Part shown: in pieces, positions 4,810-20,820 of the stretch
How positions within the stretch are numbered: position 1 is the first letter of the stretch
How the letters are laid out: each line of letters opens with the position of its first letter
Source: a virus
Virus record (IMG/VR): IMGVR_UViG_3300009506_000203
DNA length: 22,410 bases
Strand: one strand, 5' to 3'
Translations under genes and position numbers: made by a program
The notes under the pieces: model-generated
Told to the model about the DNA's origin: nothing
Databases searched by the model: none
Seen by the model: only the letters and a program-made list of their open reading frames with translations

Positions 4810-4845
4810 CTATCACGACTAGTGCCGCCGTGATAGGATTACGGG
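4810..4845 (+). promoter_or_regulatory. inverted repeat CTATCACG-N11-CGTGATAG overlapping the extended -10 TGATAGGAT; leaderless promoter for 4846
   Basis: The arms are at 4810-4817 and 4829-4836. TGA-TAGGAT (4831-4839) ends 6 nt before ATG 4846, and there is no SD. Confidence 0.45.
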
Positions 4846-5037
4846 ATGCCGCGCAAGAGTTCGTCGCCATCCATCCGCACCTACCCCTACGTAGTCCGCT
4901 ACAAGAAGGGCGGGGCGACCTTCATGACGACGAAGAAGGGCGCTTGCGAGATGGCTGGCGTGATGCGCGAGCACTCTCCTCGAATCTACCTTCGGACAAC
5001 TGCGGGGGAATCGCGTATCAGCTGCAAGCGTCGCTAG
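4846..5037 (+). CDS. small basic protein (63 aa), leaderless
   Basis: It has an ATG start, GC3 of about 70%, and a putative terminator downstream. Confidence 0.4.
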   Translation: MPRKSSSPSIRTYPYVVRYKKGGATFMTTKKGACEMAGVMREHSPRIYLRTTAGESRISCKRR

Positions 5038-5080
5038 CTCTAGCTGGACTGAGTTGGCTGCGTGGCTCTAGGCGCGAATA

Positions 5081-5110
5081 GCCCCAGACGGGGCCGAATC
5101 GCGTCTTTTT
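5081..5110 (+). terminator. putative intrinsic terminator (GCCCCAGACGGGGC hairpin ... TCTTTTT)
   Basis: A 5-bp GC stem sits at 5081-5094, and the alternative stem AGACG/CGTCT ends in the T-run 5106-5110. Confidence 0.45.
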
Positions 5111-5114
5111 CGCA

Positions 5115-5146
5115 TTTGTCACACCTCTCTGCTAAAAAGAGGGTCC
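5115..5146 (+). promoter_or_regulatory. conserved cassette TTTGTCAC-N5-TCTGCTAA (copy B) plus SD AAAAGAGGG
   Basis: TTGTCAC is at 5116-5122, TCTGCTAA at 5128-5135, and the ATG at 5147. The spacing is the same as in copy A. Confidence 0.4.
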
Positions 5147-5542
5147 ATGAAAGACATGTTCGATCTGGAATCGAAGGTCCCCGACGAGCCGGAGGCCGAG
5201 ACGACCGAGGAGCAGGCGCCTGAAGGGCAGCCCGCAGCGCAGCCGCCGGGCGGTAACTACATCGTGCAGAACATCGTTCCGATGTTTCCCGGGTGGAGCG
5301 CCTGCTACGGTGACCCTGAAGTGCCCGAAGGCGTGATCACCTTCCCGGTCGTCGCACTCGCGCTGGTCCTGCTGCAACACCCCGACGGCCGCGCTGAGCA
5401 GACGGTCCGACATCTGGTCTCGACGCCGGCCGGGCAGATCGACGACATCGTCGAGTTACCTAACTTCATCTGTGTTGTGTCGCCGGGGCAGTCGCCCGAG
5501 GCGATCATCTCAGCCATGCAGAAGCTGCAAACGGCTTCCTAG
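5147..5542 (+). CDS. hypothetical protein (131 aa, acidic N-terminus)
   Basis: It has an ATG with an SD. Confidence 0.5.
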   Translation: MKDMFDLESKVPDEPEAETTEEQAPEGQPAAQPPGGNYIVQNIVPMFPGWSACYGDPEVPEGVITFPVVALALVLLQHPDGRAEQTVRHLVSTPAGQIDDIVELPNFICVVSPGQSPEAIISAMQKLQTAS

Positions 5543-5556
5543 CAGAGGAGAAACGA

Positions 5557-5865
5557 ATGTCGATCGAACCTGGTCTCTATGAGCACTTCAAAGGCGGCAG
5601 AGTCGTCGTTCTCGGCACTGCCAAGCACTCCGAAGCGCACCACATGCAGCTCGTCGTCTACCACGACGCGAAGAACCCGGATCAACTCTGGGCGCGCCCC
5701 CTGGAGATGTTCGACCAGCGGCTCCAGCGCGGTGAGTACGACGGCCCGCGGTTCTGGCCCATCGAGGAAGACGGGACGCCCATCAAGCGTGCGGCCGAGG
5801 AGAAGAAGGCCGAGCCCGAGCAGCCTCGCCACGACGCTTCCATGGTCGGGCAGCGCCAGTCCTGA
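5557..5865 (+). CDS. DUF1653 family protein
   Basis: PGLYEHFKGGRVVVLGTAKHSE...LVVYHD...LWARPLEMF matches the DUF1653 signature. The SD is GAGGAG. Confidence 0.65.
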   Translation: MSIEPGLYEHFKGGRVVVLGTAKHSEAHHMQLVVYHDAKNPDQLWARPLEMFDQRLQRGEYDGPRFWPIEEDGTPIKRAAEEKKAEPEQPRHDASMVGQRQS

Positions 5866-5883
5866 TCCCACCGAGCCGCTGAC

Positions 5884-6507
5884 ATGGGCGGCGACAACCC
5901 ACTCAAGCGCTGGAATCACCCGAACCACCACGCCGGGTTCCTCGCTGATCTAGCCATCCTGATCTACCGCCGGGGTGCGCGAGAGCGCGCCCTTCCCGGC
6001 GACCGTCCGCCTCCGGCGAGCGACACAGAACCGAAGCGGCTCAAGCGGTACTACAAAGCCGCCAGGGCAACTGTACGCGGCACGAGGACGGTCTGGACCG
6101 CCGAGGACAAACAGCGCTTCCAAGCAAACTGGGGGCGGCTCACGCACAACCCACAGGGGTTGCTGAGCCTTTGGAGTGAGGGCATCTTCCCCTATGGAGA
6201 GCTGGTAGCTGCGGCCGGGCAAATCCTCATCGGCCGCCTACTCGACCTTCAGCCAGCTAAGCGCATTCAGTACCTGAGCAGCGTCCGCGCTTGGGCTACA
6301 ATCACAGAGGACGATGTCTCCGACCTCGAAATACGGTGGCGGATCCGTGACTGGCTCGCGCTGGCCGAGGACGAAGTCACCAACATACCGCCAAACGCCC
6401 GGCTCGCTGCGGCCGCGGCTTGGAGGGTCGGCGCTTACCCGGTTGCTTTCCAGATCGTCGTGGATGCGGCAGCAGCAGTGGTGGAGAAGGTTGGAACACG
6501 ACGTTAA
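5884..6507 (+). CDS. hypothetical protein (207 aa)
   Basis: It has an ATG start and coding-like composition through to the stop. Confidence 0.45.
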   Translation: MGGDNPLKRWNHPNHHAGFLADLAILIYRRGARERALPGDRPPPASDTEPKRLKRYYKAARATVRGTRTVWTAEDKQRFQANWGRLTHNPQGLLSLWSEGIFPYGELVAAAGQILIGRLLDLQPAKRIQYLSSVRAWATITEDDVSDLEIRWRIRDWLALAEDEVTNIPPNARLAAAAAWRVGAYPVAFQIVVDAAAAVVEKVGTRR

Positions 6508-6517
6508 CCGCTGGTTT

Positions 6518-7204
6518 GTGACGCCCTGGCATGACTGCCGCAAAGCAGCTGCATGCTGCGTCGAGCTGGCACGGCTCGTGATGGCAGCTGCCGCGAAGCC
6601 CGCTGGATTTGGGTCGCAACCGGTGAGGGCAGCCAAACACCGCCGCCAGATGACTGATGCGGAGAGGACGATCGAGTGCGCGCTCCAGTTCGTCGAGAGC
6701 TACATCGACGGGACGATCTGCGAGTGGGCTGTCAACGATGACGACTACGACGGTCGCGATCCAATCGCTTGGATCTATGACGCAGCGGCGGAGTACGCCG
6801 ATGACGCATGGCGCGCGGGGTTTCTGCATGGCGAAGCCGATCGTAGTGCAGCCGGGGACATCGCAAAGCTCGGTTGCACCATTGTGCAGAAGTGGGCCGC
6901 AAACTCTACTGGTGGGGGAGCAGTGCCAAACACGATGGTGCAGCAAGCGGCGCAACTAGCGATCGGAGTCCGCGGGAACGTTGACTACGACGAGGTCTCG
7001 GCCGTCGCCTGTCGATGGCGATTCCACGACGCGCTCGGTGATGACACGGCTCCGACCGAGGAGCTGCGGCTGGCCTTCGAGGCTGCGTGGGACATCGGCC
7101 AGTATGAGTTTGCCTACCAGCTATGCCGACCACTCGACGAGGATATGATAGAAGATGAGCATGGAGATCGAGAGGAAGTTCCTGCTGCCGAGTCTGCCGG
7201 CTGA
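6518..7204 (+). CDS. hypothetical acidic protein; start uncertain (GTG 6518 or ATG 6581)
   Basis: The listed ORF 6314..7204 overlaps the upstream gene, but its first ~65 codons look like off-frame S/R/P-rich sequence. The first plausible starts after stop 6507 are GTG 6518 and ATG 6581. Confidence 0.4.
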   Translation: MTPWHDCRKAAACCVELARLVMAAAAKPAGFGSQPVRAAKHRRQMTDAERTIECALQFVESYIDGTICEWAVNDDDYDGRDPIAWIYDAAAEYADDAWRAGFLHGEADRSAAGDIAKLGCTIVQKWAANSTGGGAVPNTMVQQAAQLAIGVRGNVDYDEVSAVACRWRFHDALGDDTAPTEELRLAFEAAWDIGQYEFAYQLCRPLDEDMIEDEHGDREEVPAAESAG

Positions 7205-7622
7205 GATCCGGTCCATCACTCCGCTTACGATCACTCAGGGCTACGTCTTCGTCGAGCCCGGTGAGCTGCGACTGCGCGAGCAGGGCGACATCCAGTTCGT
7301 CGTGACGGTCAAGGACGATGGCAACCTCGCGCGTCGTGAGTGGTCAACAGAGGTCCCACGCTGGGCGTTCGACCTGCTGTGGCGTCAGACTGAGGGGCGT
7401 CGGCTGCGCAAGCTCCGCCGTATCGTCAAGACTGAGAAGCACACTCTCGAAGTCGATGAGTACGTGGGCAGCCTGACTGGCCTGTTCATCCTCGAAGTCG
7501 AGTTCCCGAGCGAGGCAGCCGCCGCAGCGTTCGAGCTTCCATGGTGGGGCCGAGACGCGCAGGAGGTCACGCAGGACCCGGCCTACAAGAACAAGCGGCT
7601 GGCGGTCAGCGGGCGACCTTGA
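7155..7622 (+). CDS. CYTH-domain (triphosphate tunnel metalloenzyme) protein
   Basis: The N-terminal MSMEIERKFLL is the CYTH EIERKFL signature. GAGGA lies 12 nt upstream. There is a 50-nt overlap with the upstream gene. Confidence 0.55.
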   Translation: MSMEIERKFLLPSLPAEIRSITPLTITQGYVFVEPGELRLREQGDIQFVVTVKDDGNLARREWSTEVPRWAFDLLWRQTEGRRLRKLRRIVKTEKHTLEVDEYVGSLTGLFILEVEFPSEAAAAAFELPWWGRDAQEVTQDPAYKNKRLAVSGRP

Positions 7623-7635
7623 TAGACTGCTGAGC

Positions 7636-7920
7636 ATGCTGGAAGGGAAGCGCACGAAATGTCCGGCCGACGTTCGCCGGGACCTCGTTCGGCTGGCGAA
7701 GGTCGGCCGTAGGCTGCGGCGGCAGATCCGCGAACAAGGCTACACCTTCGACACCGCAGCCATGCCAGAGCGGAAGCTCCGACTGCGTGACGAGGAAGCC
7801 GTCCAGCACGGGCAGCGGCTCGTCGCCGAGGCCGAAGTCGCCGTTCGTCGGGGGCAGTGCGCTGCCGCGCGGGACAAGCTCAACGCGGCCGCGGAGTTCC
7901 TGAACTGGGCCGCGCTGTAA
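7636..7920 (+). CDS. hypothetical basic protein (94 aa), leaderless
   Basis: TGATAGACT (7620-7628) ends 7 nt before ATG 7636, and there is no SD. Confidence 0.4.
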   Translation: MLEGKRTKCPADVRRDLVRLAKVGRRLRRQIREQGYTFDTAAMPERKLRLRDEEAVQHGQRLVAEAEVAVRRGQCAAARDKLNAAAEFLNWAAL

Positions 7921-7939
7921 CCAGCTGAAATTACTCCGC

Positions 7940-7965
7940 TGTATCATCGATCGTAGCCACGATCG
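7940..7965 (+). promoter_or_regulatory. TGTATCAT -10-like element followed by palindrome site 3 (GATCGTAGCCACGATC, 7949-7964)
   Basis: The near-palindrome has GATCG/CGATC arms. TATCAT (7942-7947) is immediately upstream. Confidence 0.4.
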
Positions 7966-8036
7966 GGTTGAATAGCGGGCGGCCAGCAGCCGTCTGACTC
8001 TTGAACGCGCACGGTCCCCGAGGGGACGGAGGCAAG

Positions 8037-8267
8037 ATGAACAAGCCGAATCGAGTCGAGAACGTCGAGGAGTTCTGGTCGGACGCTCCGCCCACGCCGA
8101 GCCCGCGGTTGGTCTACTGGCAGGCGCGCATCGATGCCGGCTGGAGGCCCAACAAGCGCATCAGCAAGATGGGCTACTACAACGCCGCTGAGTTCTTCGG
8201 CGTCTGGATCTGGGAGTACATCAACGTCATCGCGCCGCGTCTCCAGGAGGCCCACGATGTTCCGTGA
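8037..8267 (+). CDS. hypothetical protein (76 aa)
   Basis: The SD CGGAGG (8027-8032) precedes ATG 8037, and a small hairpin GTCCCC/GGGGAC sits just upstream. The listed ORF 8001..8267 is an upstream extension in the same frame. Confidence 0.5.
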   Translation: MNKPNRVENVEEFWSDAPPTPSPRLVYWQARIDAGWRPNKRISKMGYYNAAEFFGVWIWEYINVIAPRLQEAHDVP

Positions 8268-9651
8268 CGAGCCCGACCTCGACTTCTCGAACCTGCCCGT
8301 CATCGAGCTGGAGTACACGGTCCCCGAGGACGACACCAGCCTGTTCCTCGTTCCGGCCGCGCGGCTGCCCTACCTGCTGGAGCGTATCAAGAAGCTCCAG
8401 AGCCGCCAGAAGCGGCTCGCGAAGGTTGGGCCGCTGGCGGACGCGGCGTTGATCACTGTCGAGGTGACCGCGCGGCAGCTCCGGCCGCCACGGTGCATCT
8501 TCTGCGGGCACGACCAGGTCCCGGCGCACTACAACGACGGCCGCTGCAAGTACGCCGCGGGGTACTGGCGTCCCGGCTCGCCGCGCGTCTACTACCTGTG
8601 CCGCGTCGAGGGTCCGCGCGCCAAGCTCGCCGACTGGGAGTTCATCGCGACTCTCCAGCACGAGGATGCAGGAACCATCCTCCGTGCTGTTCCGGGCGCT
8701 GAGATCGCCGAGGGTGAGCTGGACCGCTTTCGCAACGTGAAGCCGCATTGCGAGCACTGCAACGCTCGCCGCTACCGCAAGGACTCGTTCGTGGTCCGGC
8801 ACGATGACGGTACTCTCCGTCAGGTCGGCCGCACCTGCCTGGGCAAGTACCTGGGTGGCGGCGTCGATCCGAAGGCTATCGCGCGGCTCGCCGAGCTGCT
8901 CATCGAGGCCCGCGGCGCCGCCGATGAGGAGCCCGAGCTGGGCTGGGGGTCCGGCGGCCCGCTCGTCGGCCCGATCAGCGACTTCCTCATCTTCGTCGCT
9001 GCCTGCATCCGGCTCGAAGGCTGGCTGCCGCGCAGCAAGGCCGGGGACGACGAGGTCCCGACCGCAGACCGCGCCTGGGCGCTTCAGTTCCCCTGGTCCC
9101 AGAAGGGTCGTGAGGAAGCGGAGCGCTTCCGCAACCAGATCGAGGACCGCGATGTCGAGCTGGCCCAGGCCGCACTCGACTGCGTTCGGCGCGAACTGAA
9201 CGAGCACAACACCCGCAGCGACTATGAGCACAACCTGCGCGTCGCCTGCGCTGCTGATGTCGTCAAGGGCCGCACCGCTGGCCTGGCGGCCTCGGTGGTG
9301 ACCTGGTACGAGCGGCGCCTGGTCCACGAGCAGCGCCGCCAGGCCGCGCAGAGAGCGGCTCGAAGGGCTGCCAAGCACTCTGAGCACGTCGGCGCAGTCG
9401 GCGACATGATCAACGTCGTCGTGACCGTCCGCGGGATCTCCGATGGCTTCACCGACTACGGTGCCTACCACTTCCACCGCTTCGTCGATGTGAACGACAA
9501 CAACATCATTTGGCGCTCGACCCGTGAGCGGCTCGAAGTCGGCGCGACCTACGAGCTGCGCGGCAAGATCAAGGAGCACGGTGAGTGGAAGGGTATCAAG
9601 CAGACCCAGCTGACTCGGTGCCGGGTCCTCAACAAGATCGACAAGAACTAG
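8257..9651 (+). CDS. large hypothetical protein with C4 zinc ribbons (464 aa)
   Basis: GGAGG lies 6 nt upstream of ATG 8257. It has CIFCG...C and CEHCN...C motifs and a C-terminal beta-rich domain. The upstream part of listed ORF 8134..9651 is S/T-rich off-frame sequence. Confidence 0.55.
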   Translation: MFRDEPDLDFSNLPVIELEYTVPEDDTSLFLVPAARLPYLLERIKKLQSRQKRLAKVGPLADAALITVEVTARQLRPPRCIFCGHDQVPAHYNDGRCKYAAGYWRPGSPRVYYLCRVEGPRAKLADWEFIATLQHEDAGTILRAVPGAEIAEGELDRFRNVKPHCEHCNARRYRKDSFVVRHDDGTLRQVGRTCLGKYLGGGVDPKAIARLAELLIEARGAADEEPELGWGSGGPLVGPISDFLIFVAACIRLEGWLPRSKAGDDEVPTADRAWALQFPWSQKGREEAERFRNQIEDRDVELAQAALDCVRRELNEHNTRSDYEHNLRVACAADVVKGRTAGLAASVVTWYERRLVHEQRRQAAQRAARRAAKHSEHVGAVGDMINVVVTVRGISDGFTDYGAYHFHRFVDVNDNNIIWRSTRERLEVGATYELRGKIKEHGEWKGIKQTQLTRCRVLNKIDKN

Positions 9652-9661
9652 GAGCAAGCTG

Positions 9662-10348
9662 ATGACCGTACATCGCATCGATCTAAAGTGGTCACTCTGG
9701 TCCGTCAACGAGGAGACTTGGGAGGAGCGCGGCGCATCCAAGGCGCTCGCGGCAATGAAAGCGGCGGCGGCCGGCGGCGACCCAGTCACCGTCCACACGA
9801 CTCCTGGGAAGGAAATCAGGTACGGTACCGTGACCATCGGCCGCCGGCCCGATCACTTCATGGCTGAGCACGCGCGTTTCCTGCCCCAGCTGACGGCAGC
9901 CTACGATAGGCTGTCGGAGGAACAACGGGCCGAGGCCGAGGCGCTCGAAGCTGCCTTCTTCGACGGCGACCGGGCAGGATTCATCGCGTGGGCTCAGGAG
10001 CAGGTCCCGGAGGCGTTTACAACGCCCGAGCCACCCGCTCCGACCAACGTCGCCTACGTGCACTTCTGCGCCCTCTGGGACGATCCAGCCGACCTCGTGC
10101 CCGACAGTGTGTCCGAGGAGCGCCGCGAGGAAGTCGAGGATCAGATTCGGAGTTGGCTCGCCAACGGGGCAGGTTTCGACGAGTCCGGCGACGCCGTCGG
10201 CGCGCAGATCGATGCCGAGGTCGAGGCTGGGGACTTCGCCGAGCTGCTACGTGACATCGATGAGATCGAGAACGCGTTGCTGGAGCGCGAGGCGGCTAAC
10301 AGCAAGGCGCTCGACGAGTTCTTGACTACACTCGGGGCTGCTACCTAG
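9662..10348 (+). CDS. hypothetical acidic protein (228 aa)
   Basis: It has an SD GGAG and then an ATG. Confidence 0.5.
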   Translation: MTVHRIDLKWSLWSVNEETWEERGASKALAAMKAAAAGGDPVTVHTTPGKEIRYGTVTIGRRPDHFMAEHARFLPQLTAAYDRLSEEQRAEAEALEAAFFDGDRAGFIAWAQEQVPEAFTTPEPPAPTNVAYVHFCALWDDPADLVPDSVSEERREEVEDQIRSWLANGAGFDESGDAVGAQIDAEVEAGDFAELLRDIDEIENALLEREAANSKALDEFLTTLGAAT

Positions 10349-10871
10349 CCTGGTGGACGTAGGACTTCGCGCAGGTCACGGCTCGACGAAGCGTATTCTC
10401 GTGGCAGGGGAGCGCGCCCTGACCACGAAGGCGCTTCGCAGTCCACTTGCCGCCCTTCTGGTCGAAGGCGATGGACACGCCGTTGATCTTGCCCACCCAC
10501 CCAACGATCGACCGGCGGAACCGGATGCCGCTCATCTTGCGGTTCATCTGGACCCCAGCCAGCTCGACCTCGTCGTAGCGAGACTGGTCGTGCAGCGGCC
10601 GGCCGGAGTACTTGGTCGAGCAGACGGGAACGTCCTCGTGCGTCCAGGAGGCCGGAAGTCGGTTCCGCTTGTTGCAGCTCACCAGGAACAGGCCACCCTC
10701 CGGGCCCTTTCCAGGGCACGCGAAGTTGATGTCCACGTCGCCGACTCCTGAGCCGCTCTCGCTGATCGCCTTCTGCACGGCATCCTTCCAGCCGCGAGTA
10801 GACACTGGGTAGCTGCCGAAGCGCTGGCTTCCGGCGGGCGTCGTGACCACGAACTTGCACTTGCCGTTCAT
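10341..10871 (-). CDS. hypothetical Cys/His-containing protein (176 aa)
   Basis: The internal ATG at 10871 has AGGA upstream. The alternative frame 10345..10986 is R/P-rich sequence. There is an 8-nt convergent overlap with the gene ending at 10348. Confidence 0.45.
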   Translation of the reverse strand: MNGKCKFVVTTPAGSQRFGSYPVSTRGWKDAVQKAISESGSGVGDVDINFACPGKGPEGGLFLVSCNKRNRLPASWTHEDVPVCSTKYSGRPLHDQSRYDEVELAGVQMNRKMSGIRFRRSIVGWVGKINGVSIAFDQKGGKWTAKRLRGQGALPCHENTLRRAVTCAKSYVHQAR

Positions 10872-10882
10872 AGCTCTCAATC

Positions 10883-11509
10883 CTACTCGATCTCGTCGGC
10901 GCCGAGAACCCCTCGCAGGCCCGCGCTGACGTTGACGCAGCGGACGGCTGCCCGGAGCGACTTCTGCCGCCGACATGCCCGAGCAATCTTGCGGCCGCGG
11001 GGAGTTAGCGCGGCTTCGACGAACCACTCACCGTCGGGACGCTGCGTGAACCTGTACAGATCGCCTTCTACTTCAGCCTCCCAGCGGGGAACGATCGCCG
11101 CGCGTCTGCGGAGCAGCGTGTCCCCTACTCTCACGGCCTTTCCCAGCACGCCTTTGGCTATGAGCTGCGGGTCCAGCTCATAGACGTGCTCGATGCCCGA
11201 TGCCGTATGGAACACGACCGGTGTGCCGTCGGGGTATCGCGATCGATACCAGGTCACGCTCCAGTCATTGCGCATGAATTCGGCTGTGAGGTCCCGACCT
11301 TCACCCCACCAGTCGCGCTTGACCACCTTCCACCCTCCCACAGCCTTGGCAAACTGGTTCGGGGTGATCTCCTCGGCGTGGTTCGTGATGTACTGCACGA
11401 TGTCGTCGTCTGTTTCAGCAATAGCGGCAGCGTTGTGCTCGGGCGGTGGACTCGGGCAGTGCCAAGCGAAGTGGTAGCCTCCGGGCGTCAGCTTGGTGTT
11501 CTTCGACAT
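10883..11509 (-). CDS. hypothetical protein (208 aa), leaderless
   Basis: GTGATAGGAT on the minus strand ends 7 nt before ATG 11509. Confidence 0.5.
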   Translation of the reverse strand: MSKNTKLTPGGYHFAWHCPSPPPEHNAAAIAETDDDIVQYITNHAEEITPNQFAKAVGGWKVVKRDWWGEGRDLTAEFMRNDWSVTWYRSRYPDGTPVVFHTASGIEHVYELDPQLIAKGVLGKAVRVGDTLLRRRAAIVPRWEAEVEGDLYRFTQRPDGEWFVEAALTPRGRKIARACRRQKSLRAAVRCVNVSAGLRGVLGADEIE

Positions 11510-11550
11510 CGAATCGATCCTATCACCTGCCGATGATAGAGTGGAAGCTC
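11510..11550. promoter_or_regulatory. 41-bp divergent region: inverted repeat CTATCA-N8-TGATAG whose two arms are the extended -10 elements of back-to-back leaderless promoters
   Basis: On the minus strand, GTGATAGGAT is followed 7 nt later by ATG 11509. On the plus strand, GATGATAGAGT is followed 8 nt later by GTG 11551. Confidence 0.45.
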
Positions 11551-11835
11551 GTGAAGAAGCTCGCCACGGTTCGCCACATAGACGGTTCTTTCTATGCCTG
11601 GATCTTTCAGTGCCCAGGCTGCCACGACGTGCACCTCGTCGATGGTCGATGGTCCTTCAACAACGACCAAGAGAAGCCGACGTTCCAGCCGTCACTGAAA
11701 CGAACGCGCCCAGGTTACTGCTGCCACTCGTTCGTTCGTGACGGAAAGATCCAGTTTCTCGGTGATTGTACGCACGAGCTTGCGGGCCAAACCGTCGAGA
11801 TTCCAGACTGGGATGGATGGGGCGGCTACGAGTAG
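11551..11835 (+). CDS. hypothetical CPGC...CC protein (alternative start ATG 11533)
   Basis: The listed ORF 11446..11835 extends into the divergent gene. GTG 11551 fits the leaderless promoter, while ATG 11533 lies inside the -10. Confidence 0.45.
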   Translation: MKKLATVRHIDGSFYAWIFQCPGCHDVHLVDGRWSFNNDQEKPTFQPSLKRTRPGYCCHSFVRDGKIQFLGDCTHELAGQTVEIPDWDGWGGYE

Positions 11836-11888
11836 TTGCCGGCGCCCACGGCTGCGGCTAGAGTTGTGGTGCTGCAAGGAGGGGGACG

Positions 11889-12204: not shown

Positions 12205-12267
12205 GGCAATTCCCCCCAGGGAAGCCACCCAACCTACTCGATCGCTGCATGCACTGCAAGCCGTTTG

Positions 12268-12390
12268 CTACGGCCGCTCACGACTCACGTCGATCATAGC
12301 CATGATCATCCCCAGCACGGAGAGGCCAACGGTGCCCCCGGCGACCCAGAGCATGATCCGCTCGCCTTTTGTCAACGGACGTGTGGCCAT
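12268..12390 (-). CDS. unlisted small membrane protein (40 aa: MATRPLTKGERIMLWVAGGTVGLSVLGMIMAMIDVSRERP)
   Basis: It was found by manual translation. It has a single TM helix, GC3 of about 78%, and an AAGG SD. Confidence 0.35.
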   Translation of the reverse strand: MATRPLTKGERIMLWVAGGTVGLSVLGMIMAMIDVSRERP

Positions 12391-12419
12391 GGCTTTGCTG
12401 CCTTACCCGCCAGCGGAGG

Positions 12420-12866: not shown

Positions 12867-12870
12867 AGCG

Positions 12871-13086
12871 TCACTCTCCGATGCGACGGATGCAGCCGAG
12901 GTGAATCAAGTCGGTGAAGACCTGACTGGCAGCTTCTTCGGAGCCTTGATGGCCAAGCGCTGCGTCCCGCGAGAGATCTCCGAAGACCAACACTGCCCGC
13001 GTGCAATTGCGTCCCCGAGCGAGCTGCTCGGCTTCATCGACTGCGCGCATCGGGTTCTTGTAGCGGATTGCTTGTCTCCGAGCCAT
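12871..13086 (-). CDS. small hypothetical protein (71 aa), leaderless
   Basis: The -10-like TAGACT ends 6 nt before ATG 13086, and palindrome site 2 lies just upstream. Confidence 0.45.
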   Translation of the reverse strand: MARRQAIRYKNPMRAVDEAEQLARGRNCTRAVLVFGDLSRDAALGHQGSEEAASQVFTDLIHLGCIRRIGE

Positions 13087-13120
13087 AGCGTGAGTCTACA
13101 CCATGATCGCGGCTGCGATC
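13087..13120 (-). promoter_or_regulatory. palindrome site 2 (GATCGCGGCTGCGATC, 13105-13120) followed by GTGTAGACT promoter
   Basis: The palindrome abuts the stop of the upstream minus gene. On the minus strand, the -10 is 6 nt downstream of the palindrome. Confidence 0.45.
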
Positions 13121-14168: not shown

Positions 14169-14773
14169 CAGACGACCTCACGCAGCTCCGGCGCGTTCGC
14201 GTCCAGCCACCCGATCGCGCGTCGGCTGGCGTCGTTGATGATCGCGCCCTGCTCGATGGTCCTCGACGAGAGATTGAACTGCTTCTCGGCCACAGCGATA
14301 TCGGTCTCGTTGCACTTGTAGGCGCGCAGCAGCTCGGCGAGCTTGTGACCGGCCGGAACGTAACCGTAGCGCCAGTAGTGCATCTCCAGGTTGCAGCGGT
14401 AGGCATCGGCCTCGTAGTGCGCACGACCGGAGGAGCGCAGCAGGTACTTCCACACGAAGGTCTGGCCTTCCTTGTGGTACTGGTAGACGTGCTGGTGCTC
14501 GTGGACAGCTGTCGTGATCTGGTCCCACAAGCTCCACGCCTCGGCTTCAGCGTCGGGCACTTCCCCAACAGTGAAGGGGATGTAGATGCGATTACCGAGT
14601 GTGGTCGCGAACCTCGTCATGAAGGTCTTTACGTCCATCGCATTGATGAGGCGCAGGGCCTGTGCGATGACCTTCATCTCCAGCGCGTCGGAGCGCTTGA
14701 TGACGCGCGACTCGTAGTGGCCACTCATATAGGCCCAGAAGTCCCTGACCACCTCTGGAGTTGGATCAGCCAT
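14168..14773 (-). CDS. HExxH-motif protein, putative zinc metallopeptidase (201 aa)
   Basis: It has HEHQH with a downstream Glu (EADAY). The internal ATG at 14773 has a GGAGGG SD. The upstream part of listed ORF 14168..14968 is R/S/K-rich sequence. Confidence 0.5.
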   Translation of the reverse strand: MADPTPEVVRDFWAYMSGHYESRVIKRSDALEMKVIAQALRLINAMDVKTFMTRFATTLGNRIYIPFTVGEVPDAEAEAWSLWDQITTAVHEHQHVYQYHKEGQTFVWKYLLRSSGRAHYEADAYRCNLEMHYWRYGYVPAGHKLAELLRAYKCNETDIAVAEKQFNLSSRTIEQGAIINDASRRAIGWLDANAPELREVV

Positions 14774-14774
14774 C

Positions 14775-15275
14775 CTATTGGCCCTCCGCCGCGTGTTCAT
14801 CTGGTGGCGGTGCGGGGGACCAGGGCAGCGGCTGCGGCGCTTCCTTCTGCACCGTGTCCCAGTCACTGAGCGGTGCCGGTGAATCAGCTGGCCGCTTCTC
14901 CATCTTGGCGAGGCCATGCGGCTTCTCTTTGAGCGCGTGGAGCTTCGCTTCGTAGTCCCGTCTCTCAACTCCGGTCCGCGGCGGTTCGGTCCCGATCATC
15001 GAGATGGCTTCGTCGAGGTCGCGTTCCACCAGGGACAGTCGGTAGTAGAGGTCCGCACGGGCACGGTCAGCATCTATGAGCTTCTGACGAACCGCGTGGT
15101 AGGCGCGCTCAGCTCGTTGATCGGTCCATTCCCGTGTCTCCTTGACTTGCTCCTTTGCCTCGTTCCCTTTGCGGCGCGCAGCACGACTATCGAAGTAGGC
15201 GTTGGCAGCGCCAGCCACTGCGATGACCAGTGCAATCCACGGAGCGTATTTCTGTGCGGCCTCTTTTTTCGGCAT
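14775..15275 (-). CDS. membrane-anchored coiled-coil protein (166 aa)
   Basis: ATG 15275 has a GGGAGGGG SD. The N-terminal TM segment is YAPWIALVIAVAGAANAYF. Confidence 0.5.
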   Translation of the reverse strand: MPKKEAAQKYAPWIALVIAVAGAANAYFDSRAARRKGNEAKEQVKETREWTDQRAERAYHAVRQKLIDADRARADLYYRLSLVERDLDEAISMIGTEPPRTGVERRDYEAKLHALKEKPHGLAKMEKRPADSPAPLSDWDTVQKEAPQPLPWSPAPPPDEHAAEGQ

Positions 15276-15286
15276 TTCCCCTCCCA

Positions 15287-15544
15287 CTAAGTCGGCACGA
15301 ACGCGACCCTTTGAAACATGAATGCCGGATGCGTAAACCGCACCGTCAGCGGCGACCAGCGCGTCCAGGTTGTGCCGTCACCCTGGTGGTACTCGACGAG
15401 TGCCTGCGCCGTGAAGACGTGATCCTTGACATCGAGCAGCTTCCACCACTCCCTCTGCCCGCCAACTATCGCTGGTGTCACACCGTAGTCGATCACGTCA
15501 CCAACCTGGACATCCTTACCGCTGCGTGCATCGATAACTCTCAT
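15287..15544 (-). CDS. small hypothetical protein (85 aa)
   Basis: The internal ATG at 15544 has a GAGGA SD. The upstream part of the listed ORF is R/G-rich. Confidence 0.4.
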   Translation of the reverse strand: MRVIDARSGKDVQVGDVIDYGVTPAIVGGQREWWKLLDVKDHVFTAQALVEYHQGDGTTWTRWSPLTVRFTHPAFMFQRVAFVPT

Positions 15545-15552
15545 CGGTGTCC

Positions 15553-16371
15553 TCAGTACGCCAACAGCCGCCAGTAGATGCGCGGCGCCCCAGAGTTGAG
15601 TGTGGTCTTGATGAAAAGCCACTGGACATTGGGCGGGACGACCAGATCGAAGACCGCCTCGCCGCTTGGCGCTGCCATCGTCTGCGCGGTCGTGAGATCG
15701 AACTCGAAGGTGGGAGTCAACCCTGTCCACGGGCTCTGCGCCGCTGTCAACTGCACATCGCAGCTCCCCGCATGCGTGCTTCGTTTGAACAGCACCCGAA
15801 GCCGCTTTCGCCCAGAGATCGCGAGGACCCTGACGACGTTGGTGCCAGCTGGCACGATCATCTGGCTCGGAGATTCTGAGATCGGGCCCAAAGCAGTAGG
15901 CACGTTCGTGGGCGGCCGAAGATAGGCTATGAGTTGGAGCTTTGGGTAGACCGGCGTGACATCGTCACCGGAGGTGCCGCCGAAGATCGGAACGCCGTTG
16001 GGGTCGTTCCCCATCGCGAAGCCGAATGGCGTGCTGACGCTCGTGCCCACCGGGTAGTAGGCGTCGTCGAATCTCTGCATCGGAACCGACCGTCCTCGCC
16101 ACGGTCCGGGGATGTCTCCGATGAAGGGTGCTTCTGGCGTGACTATCTGCTGAGAGGCGATCCCCCACGCGTTCGATTGCACCGCGAACGTGTCCAGGTC
16201 GCTGTTGGGGTGGATGGCAATGCCTGCCAGGGAGAAGTTCTGAAGCCCTGTGTCGAGGCTTTGTGGATCCCCCGATGCGCCACCGTTTCCCCAGTTCGTC
16301 AGGGAGAATGCGAAGCGGTCATAGCCCTTGATGAGCGCCGTAGAGGGATCGACGATGTATTCGAGTGTCAC
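15553..16371 (-). CDS. G/S/T/P-rich beta-type protein (272 aa), possibly structural or secreted
   Basis: It has a GTG start with an AGAGGA SD and sits in a tightly packed operon. Confidence 0.5.
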   Translation of the reverse strand: MTLEYIVDPSTALIKGYDRFAFSLTNWGNGGASGDPQSLDTGLQNFSLAGIAIHPNSDLDTFAVQSNAWGIASQQIVTPEAPFIGDIPGPWRGRSVPMQRFDDAYYPVGTSVSTPFGFAMGNDPNGVPIFGGTSGDDVTPVYPKLQLIAYLRPPTNVPTALGPISESPSQMIVPAGTNVVRVLAISGRKRLRVLFKRSTHAGSCDVQLTAAQSPWTGLTPTFEFDLTTAQTMAAPSGEAVFDLVVPPNVQWLFIKTTLNSGAPRIYWRLLAY

Positions 16372-16374
16372 GCG

Positions 16375-16587
16375 TCAGTCCTCTTTCGCACGGCGCCGCA
16401 TGACGATACGACGAGCTGCTGCCAGCGCGTTGCTACACTTCCCCGGCGCGCCGCCACTCATGTGCCATCCAGTGCGATCATCCTTGATGGTGAACCTGCA
16501 CGCCCCATCGGTGCTTCGGACCGTGATGAAATAGTTGCCGACCTGGTCCTCAGCGTAGAAGTTACCCAGCTGTCGTCGCTTGCGCAT
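16375..16587 (-). CDS. small basic protein (70 aa)
   Basis: ATG 16587 has AGGAG 8 nt upstream. Confidence 0.4.
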   Translation of the reverse strand: MRKRRQLGNFYAEDQVGNYFITVRSTDGACRFTIKDDRTGWHMSGGAPGKCSNALAAARRIVMRRRAKED

Positions 16588-16589
16588 TG

Positions 16590-16853
16590 TCACTTCTCCT
16601 CGCAGGTCGGTAAACAGGTGTGCCCCTCTGGCGTCTCACAACAGACGAACGGCTGCTCGTCCTTCGAGCTGGTCACCCCGGAGCAATCCATGTTCGTGTC
16701 CCAGCGCTTGTCGCTGCCGCAGATCTCCGCAACGTTGCCGTTGCAGCGGGTCGCCGTCGGTTCGCAGTTGTCCTTCTTCTCCGTGGCTACGTTCCACAGA
16801 GGGCACCCTGACAGCATGCTCAGGGTCAGGATGATGATCAGCGCGCGCAGCAT
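16590..16853 (-). CDS. Cys-rich secreted lipoprotein
   Basis: The signal peptide MLRALIIILTLSMLSGC carries a lipobox. The mature part has 9 Cys. Confidence 0.55.
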   Translation of the reverse strand: MLRALIIILTLSMLSGCPLWNVATEKKDNCEPTATRCNGNVAEICGSDKRWDTNMDCSGVTSSKDEQPFVCCETPEGHTCLPTCEEK

Positions 16854-16906
16854 GTCTCAACATATCACGCTGCGATCACTCACGCGACCGCGATCAGATC
16901 AGCTTG

Positions 16907-17224
16907 TCACCACTTCTTCACGCACTTGCGCAGCTCGTCCGGGCAGCTTGGCTCACGAGCAAAGCAGCTGCGAACTGACTGGAGTGCGCGAAGCGCGTTG
17001 TCGCGATCTTCCAGCTTCACACGAGCGAGCGCTGTGTCCACGAGGCAAACCCACTCGGCTGATGACGCCACGCTCAGACCGTGTGAGACCGTCGTGACCG
17101 GCAGCCCGCTAGACTTCTGAACCGCCTTGGGATACCGCATCCCCCACTTCGACTCGATGTGGAACTCCATGTCCGGGTTCTTCGCCTTGCGGATCTTGAC
17201 CCCGGTCGCTTCCTTCTTCGCCAT
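16907..17224 (-). CDS. hypothetical protein (105 aa)
   Basis: It has an ATG with an AGGAG SD. Confidence 0.45.
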   Translation of the reverse strand: MAKKEATGVKIRKAKNPDMEFHIESKWGMRYPKAVQKSSGLPVTTVSHGLSVASSAEWVCLVDTALARVKLEDRDNALRALQSVRSCFAREPSCPDELRKCVKKW

Positions 17225-17225
17225 G

Positions 17226-17528
17226 CTATCTCCTGCGGGGACCGCTCAGCTTGAGCTTGTGCGTGAGGGGCGGCTGGTTCTGCCACCGCGCTGCAATCGG
17301 TGGAGGCTCCGGGATCGTGATCTCCTCACCGACACGCTGGCAGCTGCATCGCTTGATGATGAGTTTGCAGTTCCGCATCTCGCGGTTGTACTTGACCATG
17401 TCGCGGACCAGCGTCCGCAGCGCGTGCCGTCCACGACGGACGGCTTGCTTCATCGTGTCGCCCTCGACGGTCGTTTCGATGTTCGCTCGCGTCGGCTTGG
17501 TGCCGCAGTAGACGATCCCTTCGTACAT
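17226..17528 (-). CDS. hypothetical protein (100 aa)
   Basis: The internal ATG at 17528 has AGGAG 7 nt upstream. The upstream part of listed ORF 17226..17582 is P/S-rich. Confidence 0.45.
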   Translation of the reverse strand: MYEGIVYCGTKPTRANIETTVEGDTMKQAVRRGRHALRTLVRDMVKYNREMRNCKLIIKRCSCQRVGEEITIPEPPPIAARWQNQPPLTHKLKLSGPRRR

Positions 17529-17536
17529 GTTGGCTC

Positions 17537-18034
17537 CTACCGGTGGTGGCGGCGACCGCTCAGCTCGACTGGTGGCGGACATGCGACCGGGCGGGGCTTG
17601 CGCTCCTTCTTCAACCGCTGGAAGCCAGCAGCGCGCCCTCTCTCAATGCCGGCCTTCACGCCCTTCGTCTGCGGGACCTCACCGAGGATCCGCTCAGGTG
17701 GAATGGGCTCGCTGGTCATGTAGAACTCAGGCAGGTTCGGCGACCGCAACGGCCGGTAGACCGGGCAGTGCTCTTTGGTCCCGACGATCCTCACCTTGAG
17801 GATGGTTAGGGGCTCGTCGGGGCAGCCCTCCCTGACGGCCCGCTTCGCGATGTGCTCTGCGGCGTAGTTCGGGCTCCGCGTGAACCAGATGTCGCCCCGC
17901 GGGCCCTTCCTCAATCCCTGCTTCTTGATGAGGCTCGCACGGAGCTTGTAGGTCCCGTGGTAGCCCACGAAGTCACACTTGCCGAAGGGCTGGACCTCGA
18001 CCCACTTGCCTAGCTGGCGGCGTCGCCTTGACAT
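17537..18034 (-). CDS. minimal Tpt1/KptA-like (NAD-dependent ADP-ribosyl/2'-phosphotransferase fold) protein with a basic C-terminal tail
   Basis: VGYHGTYKLRASLIKKQGLRKGPRGDIWFTRS...EPLTILKV parallels KptA LYHGTASRFLDEIKKQGL...RHYVHLS...SPVILTV. The N-terminal RNA-binding lobe is absent. The start is leaderless at ATG 18034. Confidence 0.4.
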   Translation of the reverse strand: MSRRRRQLGKWVEVQPFGKCDFVGYHGTYKLRASLIKKQGLRKGPRGDIWFTRSPNYAAEHIAKRAVREGCPDEPLTILKVRIVGTKEHCPVYRPLRSPNLPEFYMTSEPIPPERILGEVPQTKGVKAGIERGRAAGFQRLKKERKPRPVACPPPVELSGRRHHR

Positions 18035-18073
18035 GGGCCCCAGTATACACGGTCTCGGATCGCAGCTGTGATC
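18035..18073 (-). promoter_or_regulatory. leaderless promoter GTGTATACT plus palindrome site 4 (GATCGCAGCTGTGATC, 18058-18073)
   Basis: On the minus strand, TATACT ends 7 nt before ATG 18034. The palindrome lies 10 nt upstream of the -10, in the -35 position. Confidence 0.45.
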
Positions 18074-18246
18074 GAGCGGCCTGCGACCGGGCCCGCGGTC
18101 GAACCCGCGGCCGAGACATCGAGACAGCGATACCGGAGCGGGGCCATCCCCCCGAATCGCCACGGGGTGGCGGCACAGTTCTGTGCAGGCCCACTGAGAT
18201 GTGCTCTACTGGTGGCGGAGACGTTCGAGGTGGCTGGGTGCCGCGG

Positions 18247-18284
18247 CGCCCGCCAGGCTGAGCTGGTCTGGCGGGCGTCATTTT
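18247..18284 (+). terminator. intrinsic terminator-like hairpin (10-bp stem CGCCCGCCAG/CTGGCGGGCG, then TCATTTTG)
   Basis: It is a perfect inverted repeat with a T-run, and no plus-strand CDS lies upstream. Confidence 0.45.
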
Positions 18285-18440
18285 GCCGGCCTTCGAGCCG
18301 CCCGAGCTGGCCGCCCCGCGCAGCTCGTGTGGGCTCCTGTCGCGCCCATGGCCGAGCTGGTTGGGCCGCGCGGCCAGCGCCCGCGACGAGGCCACAGAGG
18401 CGCTCCTGGAGCGTCCTGGAGGGCATGCACTATACGCCCG

Positions 18441-18720
18441 ATCGGAAGATCCAATTTTGGGGGTCTAACTACCTTGATCGGGCCCTTTTTCGGCCCGTTT
18501 CCCCTTTGATTACCGGCCTGTGTAGGTGATCGTTACTCAGGGTTAGATCCCTCCCCTACCCCTTATAGATCCGCTGGTACATCTATCAACTTTTCATAGA
18601 TTTACTAGCCGAAACTAAGGAGGGTATAGGGACTTCTAACCTTGTAGATTTCGGGTGTTTTCAGTAGGGATCTCACGGAGATCAAGGTCCCCCTCCAATT
18701 GTTAGTGGTACGGCGCGTCA
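18441..18720. repeat. AT-rich (about 45-50% GC) repeat island
   Basis: It contains TCTAAC twice and GGTTAGA as inverted copies. It has three YRTAGATYY direct repeats, a GATCTC-acg-GAGATC palindrome, and an orphan AAGGAGG. Confidence 0.4.
18479..18505 (+). terminator. hairpin CGGGCC-ctttttc-GGCCCG followed by TTTCCCCTTTGATT
   Basis: It has a 6-bp GC stem and a T-rich tail, at the edge of the AT-rich island. Confidence 0.4.
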
Positions 18721-18796
18721 AAGTTGAAATGTAGTCGTGGCAACGGGTAGTACACTGCAAGAAAGTCACTGGCCCTTGCGGCCGGTGACTGTGAAT

Positions 18797-18868
18797 GTCG
18801 TTGACGTGCTATGTCAACGTCGCACGCTGTCGTTGCACGTCGCGAGCGTGCCGTGTACGATCCCAACG
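18797..18868 (+). promoter_or_regulatory. operator repeats plus a sigma70-like promoter TTGCAC-17-TACGAT for the RHH-AP2 gene
   Basis: Direct repeats TGTCGTTGACGT (18797-18808) and TGTCGTTGCACGT (18829-18841) flank the inverted copy GTCAACG (18813-18819). The -10 at 18856-18861 ends 7 nt before ATG 18869. Confidence 0.45.
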
Positions 18869-19561
18869 ATGCCGCCGAAGCACCGTCTCACGGTTCGCAT
18901 GGAGGATGACCTCTATGACTACCTGCATCAACGCGCGGCACGAAATTTCCGCACGGCACCCGACGAAGTGCAGGCGATCGTATTTGCGCTGAGGGCTGCT
19001 GAGCGCGCTGCGGATACCTCTCCGTTGCCGTCGTCCGAGCTGCCGGCCGTGCTGACGGGCGCTTCCGACGCGGGACCTGAAGCGGAGCCCGAGGCGCCCC
19101 CCGAGCCCGGTGTGACCCACAAGCTCCGCGGCCCGCGCGGCACCCTCTCGGGCTACTTCGGCGTACACCGGTACGGGAAGCGTTGGATAGCCAAGCTGAC
19201 CAGAAATGGTGTAGCGACAAAGGTCGGTGTGTTCGACGACCCGGAGGAAGCTGCCCAAGCCTACGACGACGCCGTCAGGACCAGCGGAACTGGCGGCCGG
19301 CTCAACTTCCCGACGGAGCAGGAGGAAGCTGCACGGTCCAGCGGCGGCTTGGAGACGCTGCCTGACTGGATCCGCGTGCAGGGGCCCGGAGCGTCGGACA
19401 TCCCCCCAGAGCATCTTCCTGAAGCTCTACGGCGTGGTCTCATCGCGTCCGGCGAGATGGACGTGCCGCCAGTCGAGGACCACTACGAGGCGCCCTCTGA
19501 TGAGGACGCGGACCTGGTCCCGGACCCGGACATCGACCCCGATCCGCCCTCCCTCCACTGA
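18869..19561 (+). CDS. ribbon-helix-helix + AP2 DNA-binding domain regulator
   Basis: The N-terminal RLTVRMEDDLYDYLHQRAARNF is an RHH beta-strand and helix. GYFGVHRYGKRWIAKLTRNGVATKVGVFDDPEEAAQAYDDAV is an AP2 domain. The upstream 44 codons of listed ORF 18737..19561 cover the operator repeats. Confidence 0.6.
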   Translation: MPPKHRLTVRMEDDLYDYLHQRAARNFRTAPDEVQAIVFALRAAERAADTSPLPSSELPAVLTGASDAGPEAEPEAPPEPGVTHKLRGPRGTLSGYFGVHRYGKRWIAKLTRNGVATKVGVFDDPEEAAQAYDDAVRTSGTGGRLNFPTEQEEAARSSGGLETLPDWIRVQGPGASDIPPEHLPEALRRGLIASGEMDVPPVEDHYEAPSDEDADLVPDPDIDPDPPSLH

Positions 19562-19570
19562 GGCTGTGTG

Positions 19571-19603
19571 GGCGCCCCTCACTTGGGGGAAGCGAGGGGC
19601 GCC
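19571..19603. terminator. 10-bp GC stem-loop (GGCGCCCCTC/GAGGGGCGCC) between convergent genes
   Basis: It is a perfect inverted repeat with no clear U-tract. It may act as a bidirectional terminator. Confidence 0.4.
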
Positions 19604-19688
19604 GATAGGGTGCTGGGTTTCAGCCACCGGGCGGGCGGCGTTGACTCTTGATCTCTAGCAGAAAGTGTGCGGGGCGCGCAATTGAATT

Positions 19689-19704
19689 GATCGTGTGAGC
19701 GATC
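19689..19704. promoter_or_regulatory. palindrome-family site 5 (GATCGTGTGAGCGATC)
   Basis: It has the GATCG-N6-CGATC arms and overlaps the stop of the minus gene 19703..19951. Confidence 0.3.
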
Positions 19705-19951
19705 AGGCTCCCTTGAGCTTCGAGCGCCGCAGCCGGAGCGCGGTCCCGTTGGCCAGCATCACGGCCGGCTTACCGCGGAACTCGCACACGTAGGCGAAGC
19801 CGCCGGTTGGAATGCTTCGCCCCTTTCCAACGTAGGGCTTCCCGGAGATCTGGACGAAGCTCGCGTCGCCCTGGTGCTGGACCGGGATGTCCCGACAGGT
19901 CTCTAGATCCCAGCCGATCTCGCGTCGTCGGTGCCGACCCAGCCTCGTCAT
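19703..19951 (-). CDS. hypothetical protein (82 aa), leaderless
   Basis: On the minus strand, CGTGATAGATT ends 6 nt before ATG 19951. Confidence 0.4.
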   Translation of the reverse strand: MTRLGRHRRREIGWDLETCRDIPVQHQGDASFVQISGKPYVGKGRSIPTGGFAYVCEFRGKPAVMLANGTALRLRRSKLKGA

Positions 19952-20038
19952 GAGGCCAATCTATCACGAAGCAGAAACCGCCACCAGGCGTCGAAACGCT
20001 GTGGGACCGCGCTGGAGCGTCAGGATTAAAGAAGCGCA

Positions 20039-20812: not shown

Positions 20813-20820
20813 GCAGGCAG

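Follow-up and report, generated by a model that had tools for sequence, protein, structure and literature searches.

A 22,410-bp stretch of viral DNA (IMG/VR record IMGVR_UViG_3300009506_000203; hereafter, the window) contains a family of about 14 start sites at which a -10-like hexamer, TANNNT, ends 5-9 nt (mostly 6-8 nt) before an ATG or GTG codon. We assign these elements, with a probability of roughly 0.8, to host sigma-70/SigA-type promoters that have no -35 element, are mostly of the extended -10 type and yield leaderless mRNAs. The first-pass annotation of this DNA had described eight of the sites as leaderless promoters marking the heads of transcription units. All eight quoted strings are found in place, with TANNNT ending 6-8 nt before the named start codons (Table 1), and every computational test capable of contradicting this interpretation favoured it, including those of position, exclusivity with Shine–Dalgarno (SD) sequences, divergent intergenic regions, a self-contained gene cassette and orthologues. 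The list of eight proved incomplete, and the family is extended here by the starts at 1252, 5147, 10871, 16853, 20812 and 20853.

The motif is strongly associated with gene starts. TANNNT is rare in this GC-rich DNA (61-67% GC), with 134 occurrences on both strands over 22.4 kb. It ends 6-8 nt upstream of 9 of the 43 gene starts, whereas chance predicts this for 0.9% of genes (binomial p = 1.6e-10); the starts at 11551, 13086 and 18869 were picked partly by the motif itself, leaving six that were made independently by the gene caller, and at a spacing of 6 nt the TAG of the hexamer doubles as the in-frame stop codon that bounds the open reading frame (ORF), which introduces a mild ascertainment bias. 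At five of the eight originally listed sites, the start is the earliest possible start codon of the ORF. The sequence TGATAGNNT occurs five times in the window, each time immediately before an ORF start, and 10 of the 20 TGnTAnnnT/GTGTAnnnT sites are located 5-9 nt before an annotated start. A TG or GTG prefix accompanies 10 of the 11 start-proximal TANNNT hexamers versus 10 of the 123 others (Fisher p = 5e-9), indicating that the prefix belongs to the signal. Over the 14 members, A at -11 is invariant, T at -7 is present in 13 and T at -12 in 12; twelve genes start with ATG and two with GTG. The earlier observation that these genes lack an SD sequence also holds: GGAG, GAGG or AGGA lies at -17 to -4 in 1 of the 14 motif genes, compared with 20 of the 29 others (p = 2e-4). 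The genes fall into two clean classes, SD-led and -10-led. Since the motif genes are, with one exception, devoid of an SD sequence, they would have no initiation signal unless their start codon were 5'-terminal.

The motif is distributed in the manner expected for the heads of transcription units, as each of the three divergent intergenic regions (11509/11551, 18034/18869 and 20812/20853) contains one motif per direction. The 11509 and 11551 promoters stand back to back, with 8 bp separating the two TGATA motifs. The 20812/20853 pair shares this arrangement, with an 8-bp gap identical to that of the 11509/11551 pair, and forms a perfect inverted repeat, TGTCACA-GCGG-TGTGACA. The 18034 promoter is the head of a long leftward operon. 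Internal members of the family precede small accessory genes. One of these genes (4846-5037) has its own motif after a 36-nt gap, encodes a 63-aa product and is closed by an intrinsic terminator. This cassette is missing from the otherwise collinear relatives L002, an NCBI metagenome-assembled genome (MAG) contig, and L108, the end of a 143-kb JGI contig. With its own predicted promoter, its own predicted terminator and its absence from syntenic relatives, it has the makeup of a classic phage moron. A second kind of mobile gene requiring a promoter of its own is 18869, which encodes a free-standing HNH endonuclease. The GC-rich hairpin beyond this gene is probably a bidirectional terminator. 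An inverted repeat, CTATCAC-N13-GTGATAG (4810-4836, with the upstream arm CTATCAC at 4810-4816), is present at the 4846 promoter; it was considered as a divergent promoter and rejected, as its minus-strand hexamer, TAGCTA, lacks T at -7 and is not followed by a start codon.

The same arrangement bears on a reading in which the genes are expressed from leadered, polycistronic transcripts by translational coupling or reinitiation, the hexamers being by-products of stop codons and intergenic composition. Stop codons do overlap the motif in places. At 7636, the CYTH gene ends with the TGA of TTGATAG, 13 nt ahead of the ATG, the TAG of TAGGAT at 10871 terminates the upstream gene, and the hexamer TAG is in frame at the 6-nt spacing, as noted above. 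However, coupling is inapplicable to the six unit heads in the divergent regions, which have no same-strand upstream gene, and to the 4846 gene, which lies behind a 36-nt gap as an insertion with its own terminator. It also leaves unaccounted for the invariant A-11/T-7 pair, the TG prefix, the 7-8 nt spacings and the persistence of the hexamer in orthologues whose flanks differ. This reading is therefore highly improbable.

The conservation of the promoters was compared in L002, L108 and L109, the last being part of a 147-kb IMG/VR viral genome; these syntenic relatives share approximately 56-80% amino-acid identity with the window proteins. In the orthologous promoters of the YpsA gene, the 71-aa gene (13086) and the 87-aa gene (16853), a -10-like hexamer lies 6-7 nt before the same ATG, and the flanks have diverged. 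The YpsA gene is preceded by TGCTAACGT and 9 nt in the window, TGGTAGTGT and 7 nt in L002, and TGTTAGTGT and 6 nt in L108, with a conserved block upstream. The 71-aa gene and its L108 orthologue have the same order of a palindrome (described below), 6 nt, TAGACT, 6 nt and ATG. The 87-aa gene has TGATATGTT and 5 nt in the window, TGATAGGCT and 6 nt in L108, and TGATAAGCT and 6 nt in L109. At the site corresponding to 5147, both L002 and L108 carry TGTCACAC-N-TGATACATA followed by 6 nt and ATG, and both have GTGATAGAGT, 6 nt and ATG before a 350-aa gene that is absent from the window. The 105-aa gene, SD-led in the window, is preceded in L109 by TGATAGGAT and 6 nt, a leaderless-type start. This difference would show turnover of the initiation mode between orthologues, as reported for Actinobacteria (PMC3160421). 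Leaderless-type starts are as frequent in the relatives as in the window, accounting for 5 of the 29 called genes in L108 and 5-6 of the 35 in L105 (~15-20%), a more distant relative from a phage whose longest contig is 243 kb. The only homologue found for the 208-aa gene (11509) lies on a truncated contig of 1.3 kb whose 31 nt of upstream sequence are uninformative, and a metagenome scan yielded relatives of at most 39% identity, at which distance promoters can no longer be compared.

Start codons can be fixed by means of the motif, which also recovers genes that the gene caller had missed or truncated. The first-pass annotation had preferred ATG 18869 to GTG 18737 for the HNH gene. This choice is borne out by the L109 orthologue, whose alignment begins at residue 9 of the window protein, ahead of the ATG 18899 chosen by the gene caller; the orthologue's own ATG sits four codons inside. 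The GC content at third codon positions (GC3) is 0.64 in the 18737-18868 extension versus 0.76 in the 18869 ORF. The preference for GTG 11551 over ATG 11533 is only weakly favoured, by a PHROG profile whose position 15 aligns to residue 16 of the GTG-started protein. With ATG 11533 as the start, the hexamer would become part of the coding sequence and just TATCAC, with no T at -7, would remain upstream. The 71-aa ORF at 13086, taken as a gene in the earlier annotation, has a GC3 of only 0.65 and was skipped by the gene caller. It is nevertheless a real gene, since L108 has a called 69-aa gene with 65% identity to it and the same upstream architecture. As a separate observation, the L109 HNH orthologue (7903-8580) aligns in two frames and is preceded by GTGATACGGAT, which contains no TANNNT; the gene is probably frameshifted and may be undergoing decay along with its promoter.

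These features are consistent with a mechanism in which the holoenzyme containing the host primary sigma-70-family factor (SigA/HrdB-like) would read the -10 elements without a recognizable -35. The extended -10 contact would be supplied by TGn in the TGATAG subclass and by a G/TG-rich equivalent in the GTGTA subclass. The hexamer is so close to the ATG or GTG that the transcription start would fall on the opening nucleotide of that codon or no more than a few nucleotides away. Such a transcript would possess neither a leader nor an SD sequence, and its 5'-terminal AUG or GUG would be translated via the leaderless pathway without SD pairing. The promoters would head the phage transcription units and, within operons, would also serve small accessory or mobile genes, among them the 4846 moron and the HNH gene. 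The recognition by RNA polymerase, the exact 5' ends, the leaderless translation and the actinobacterial host are all inferred from the sequence. Inspection of the aligned upstream sequences by eye revealed no common hexamer at 16-19 nt spacing, and a generic sigma-70 -35/-10 scan found 3 sites against 2.8 expected, none of them at the motif promoters. The generic promoter and terminator scan missed every site, owing to the lack of a -35 element and the high GC content of the terminators.

The expression mode suggests a high-GC host that is proficient in leaderless translation, most likely an actinobacterium, and the gene content offers one further indication. The 195-aa product (3169-3756) has 241 matches in the phage collection, all of them in actinobacteriophages (234 Mycobacterium, 5 Gordonia, 1 Mycolicibacterium and 1 Microbacterium phage), and its best matches among those listed belong to genomes of approximately 151-161 kb. 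The remaining window proteins that were searched match uncultured huge phages only, or nothing. The 464-aa family is present in phages or MAGs of many phyla. Host assignment from these MAGs was rejected, as the phyla are unrelated and the matches probably represent phage DNA binned into MAGs. Accordingly, the window is a fragment of a large uncultured phage whose host is likely actinobacterial.

Several observations weigh against the proposed promoter assignment. The host assignment hangs on the family of the 195-aa product. The proposal of an extended -10 holds for the TGATAG subclass, and fails for GTGTAnnnT, where TG abuts the hexamer at -14/-13; three of the eight originally listed sites consequently fall outside the canonical TGn register. 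Two added members, 20812 and 20853, have C at -12, their sole departure from the GTGATAG consensus, and 5147 has A at -7. Where the spacing is 8-9 nt (1252, 5147, 10871, 11551 and 20853), either an unusually distal transcription start or a leader of 1-3 nt would be required. In addition, A is nearly invariant at -13 and G is frequent at -16 and -10 (GTGATAG), a specificity beyond that needed by a generic SigA -10, which leaves room for a phage-specific factor. The unusual uniformity of the motif (GTGAYAG) would also suit a promoter read by a phage-encoded RNA polymerase or phage sigma factor in place of the host primary sigma factor. Some large phages encode their own transcription machinery, and the relatives of the window reside on 143-147 kb contigs, with more distant family members on contigs of 175-350 kb. 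However, neither an RNA polymerase nor a sigma gene turned up in the window or the fetched flanks, and the motif, TANNNT with TGn, has exactly the form and canonical distance of a sigma-70-family -10. The identical signal is a genome-wide host signal in Actinobacteria and Deinococcus-Thermus (PMC3160421). A phage-encoded polymerase or sigma factor is quite improbable.

The window also contains a 16-bp palindrome, GATCGCAGCTGCGATC (GATC-N8-GATC; GATCGYR-N2-YRCGATC), which is intergenic, lies beside promoters and was missed in the first pass. Allowing up to 3 mismatches, it has 9 matches in the window against 1.5 expected, and none of 100 shuffles reaches 9. Copies are also found in the relatives (Table 1), with three within one divergent intergenic region of L105. 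At 13086, 18034 and three L105 promoters, a gap of 3-10 nt separates the palindrome from a downstream hexamer located 6-9 nt ahead of the ATG; in this position, the palindrome would overlap the -35/spacer region. Two of the three GTGTA-subclass promoters are associated with it. The palindrome is located downstream of a candidate -10 at 3827 and 7949 in the window and at 16952 in L108. Its dyad symmetry, its presence at multiple promoters and its conservation in relatives suggest that it is probably the operator of a dimeric regulator. Since its placement varies, a repressor operator fits best and an activator site less so. Pfam and PHROG searches with the products of the leaderless genes and of the palindrome-adjacent genes identified no regulator, and no helix-turn-helix or ribbon-helix-helix protein was found in the window.

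A second element, the TRTCAC box, precedes the hexamer in 6 of the 14 members (1252, 5147, 11509, 11551, 20812 and 20853), in each case with its end exactly 10 nt away. In the two back-to-back divergent pairs (TRTCA-N8-TGAYA), the box corresponds to the partner's extended -10 read on the opposite strand. At the unidirectional promoters 1252 and 5147, it is conserved in L002 and L108. The box may be a factor site or a short-spacer, -35-like element. Read as a -35, TTGTCA matches four of the five specified positions of BTGACN with a spacer of just 11 nt, and Streptomyces possesses a promoter class with a 12-nt spacer (PMC8780764).

These two elements raise the possibility of phage-specific promoter classes, in which the host RNA polymerase would bind the core and phage factors would bind either the palindrome (13086 and 18034) or the box (the six promoters listed above). 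Such an arrangement would yield temporal classes analogous to the MotA-box middle promoters of T4 or to repressor-controlled early promoters. The enrichment of the palindrome, its conservation at orthologous intergenic sites of L002, L003, L004 and L108, its presence in the more distant L105 and its position just upstream of five start-proximal hexamers all agree with this idea, as do the fixed distance of the box, its conservation at the two unidirectional promoters and a GTGATAG core tighter than generic TANNNT. In contrast, the palindrome is missing from six of the eight originally listed promoters and the box is missing from six, although they have the core in common. The copies of the palindrome downstream of candidate -10s suit a repressor operator over a positioned activator, the box in four of the six cases coincides with the divergent partner's extended -10, and no DNA-binding protein was detected among the window proteins. 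We therefore treat phage-specific classes as a tentative possibility. The more elaborate proposal, that the GTGAYAG core together with the palindrome or box constitutes a factor-dependent temporal programme, with phage regulators acting on the host polymerase in a new actinobacterial-type lineage (143-147 kb contigs) and the divergent pairs serving as symmetric switches, seems unlikely.

Table 1. Predicted promoters and associated elements in the window and its relatives (spacing, nucleotides between the hexamer and the start codon; TG, position of the TG dinucleotide)
Feature	Position	Strand	Sequence	Hexamer	Spacing	TG	Start codon, gene and remarks
1252 promoter	1234-1254	+	TGCTAACGT		9	-15/-14	ATG 1252, YpsA/SLOG-like gene
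4846 promoter	4830-4848	+	GTGATAGGAT	4834-4839	6	-15/-14	ATG 4846, 63-aa gene
5147 promoter	5130-5149	+	TGCTAAAAA		8	-15/-14	ATG 5147; atypical, A at -7, GAGG near the ATG
7636 promoter	7619-7638	+	TTGATAGACT	7623-7628	7	-15/-14	ATG 7636, 94-aa gene
10871 candidate promoter	10869-10885	-	TAGGAT		8	none	ATG 10871, 176-aa gene; uncertain member
11509 promoter	11507-11526	-	GTGATAGGAT	11522-11517	7	-15/-14	ATG 11509, 208-aa gene; head of leftward unit
11551 promoter	11533-11553	+	ATGATAGAGT	11537-11542	8	-15/-14	GTG 11551, DUF6527/BubE-like gene
13086 promoter	13084-13120	-	palindrome GATCGCAGCCGCGATC (13105-13120), 6 nt, TAGACT	13098-13093	6	abutting hexamer	ATG 13086
16853 promoter	16851-16868	-	GTGATATGTT		5	-15/-14	ATG 16853, 87-aa gene
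18034 promoter	18032-18073	-	palindrome GATCACAGCTGCGATC (18058-18073), 10 nt, TATACT	18047-18042	7	abutting hexamer	ATG 18034
18869 promoter	18853-18871	+	GTGTACGAT	18856-18861	7	abutting hexamer	ATG 18869, HNH endonuclease gene
19951 promoter	19949-19967	-	GTGATAGATT	19963-19958	6	-15/-14	ATG 19951, 82-aa gene
20812 promoter	20810-20828	-	GTGACAAACT		6	-15/-14	GTG 20812, 257-aa gene; C at -12
20853 promoter	20835-20855	+	GTGACAGACT		8	-15/-14	ATG 20853, 76-aa gene; C at -12
Palindrome	3827-3842	.	GATCGCAGCTGCGATC				Ends 20 nt before SD-led ATG 3863; conserved at the orthologous site of L002 and L108
Palindrome	7949-7964	.	GATCGTAGCCACGATC				Upstream of the 8037/8257 genes; orthologous site kept in L002, L003, L004 and L108
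Weaker palindrome copies	12292-12307, 19689-19704						
Palindrome copies, L002	6102, 9910						
Palindrome copies, L003	295, 2573						
Palindrome copy, L004	503						
Palindrome copies, L108	6266, 9914, 13277, 14139, 16952, 19307						
Palindrome copies, L105	1516, 9551, 9588, 9632, 12225						
TRTCAC boxes	1220-1226 (TTGTCAC), 5116-5122 (TTGTCAC), 11521-11526, 11533-11538, 20823-20828, 20835-20840						
Intrinsic terminator	5070-5110	+					13-pair interrupted stem, then UUUUU; closes the 4846 cassette
GC-rich hairpin	19571-19603	.					Between convergent 18869-19561 (+) and 19703-19951 (-)

The window is a complete metagenomic contig, and the identical sequence was assembled from SRR14699975. 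It is densely filled by small genes of unassigned function, and the annotated products comprise vault/MVP-shoulder-like, YpsA/SLOG, DUF7768, DUF1653, CYTH, NUDIX and DUF6527/BubE proteins as well as the HNH endonuclease. Scans of the whole window for tRNAs and Rfam families gave no matches, and neither did a megablast of 16 kb of the window against 50,697 phage records. An IMG/VR scan with a 505-aa ORF as the query returned none, and an exact-protein look-up with the same ORF also returned none because the called gene is the 464-aa version. A vault-like protein of approximately 880 aa (2-958 in the window, 785-3436 in L002) with major-vault-protein shoulder and Vault_3 domains is encoded in this phage lineage and has distant homologues in uncultured huge phages of 460-735 kb. 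The 76-aa ORF at 8037-8267 is unique to the window and is opened by the leader and SD sequence that are conserved before the 465-aa gene in L002 and L108; the 464-aa gene (8257-9651) comes after it with its own AGGAG. The 76-aa ORF looks like a small gene inserted precisely at the start of a conserved gene. The 185-aa gene, called from ATG 1718, overlaps the YpsA gene by 110 nt (1718-1827). It is homologous to L002 and L108 from residue 6 onwards, and the callers there pick a GTG that gives a 23-nt overlap, so the real start in the window is uncertain. An 830-nt non-coding stretch (18035-18868) separates the divergent 18034 and 18869 genes and includes an AT-rich part with repeated GGGACTTCTAA-like units. 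Blocks at approximately 18539-18562, 18654-18692 (including GATCTCAYGGAGATC) and 18707-18727 are kept in L109, and an Rfam search of the stretch found nothing. This region could be an origin, a regulatory region or a non-coding RNA.

The proposed leaderless promoters represent a known mode of expression, found here in one more uncultured phage lineage, and constitute no new kind of element. Their practical value is that the motif delimits transcription units in a contig of almost wholly unassigned genes. The palindrome and the box are more interesting than the leaderless mode itself, which opens no fresh question.

Several known systems resemble parts of this organization. Phage morons are promoter-gene-terminator cassettes, and the 4846-5037 gene is alike in its promoter, its terminator and its absence from syntenic relatives, differing in that its promoter is of the leaderless type. 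The middle promoters of T4 combine a MotA box centred near -30 with a sigma-70 -10. By analogy only, the TRTCAC box or the palindrome stands in place of a -35 at a short, fixed distance; unlike the T4 system, no MotA/AsiA homologue was found, and the elements are partly palindromic and partly explained by divergent promoters. Extended -10 promoters are alike in having TG separated from TANNNT by a single base (in 7 of the 14 members, rising to 9 with the two that have C at -12) and no -35 consensus at 16-19 nt spacing, whereas the GTGTAnnnT subclass (13086, 18034 and 18869) places TG at -14/-13. The middle and late transcripts of the Thermus phage phiYS40 are reportedly leaderless (Sevostyanova et al. 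2007), and this phage is said to be likewise a large one that uses the host RNA polymerase together with leaderless mRNAs. The sole host hint in the window points to Actinobacteria, in contrast to Thermus. In Deinococcus, where the leaderless mode has been verified experimentally, the "-10 motif adjacent to ORFs" of Deinococcus-Thermus is similarly a -10-only promoter a few base pairs from the ORF with a spacing requirement (PMC4007540, PMC12340547).

Among phages, the Cluster O mycobacteriophages have divergent SigA-like promoters that are predicted to be leaderless and a repeated palindrome, TGTTCGGNNNCCGAACA (PMC4351075). The window resembles them in its divergent promoter pairs with a predicted +1 at the first codon, its internal promoters in long operons and its lineage-specific palindromic repeat scattered through intergenic DNA. 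It differs in the sequence of the palindrome (GATCGCAGCTGCGATC) and in having no detectable -35, and the phages are unrelated in sequence. In bacterial genomes, TANNNT with its first T approximately 12 nt before the start codon marks leaderless genes, which make up ~19% of genes in Actinobacteria and ~39% in Deinococcus-Thermus (PMC3160421). The leaderless mode has been verified experimentally in Streptomyces, where 22% are leaderless with a TANNNT -10 (PMC8780764), and in Mycobacterium (PMC4633059). The division into SD-led and -10-led genes has also been described for leaderless-rich genomes (PMC3160421, PMC12340547). Compared with the actinobacterial host logos, the TG/GTG prefix and the G at -10 (TGATAG) are much more uniform in this uncultured phage. 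In other respects, the family closely matches the leaderless genes of Mycobacterium, Streptomyces and Corynebacterium, which share with it a TANNNT whose first T lies ~12-14 nt before ATG or GTG, the lack of an SD sequence, a weak or absent -35, a proportion of ~20-30% of genes (14 of 43 in the window), a preference for ATG, a high GC content and AGGAG-type SD sequences on the other genes.

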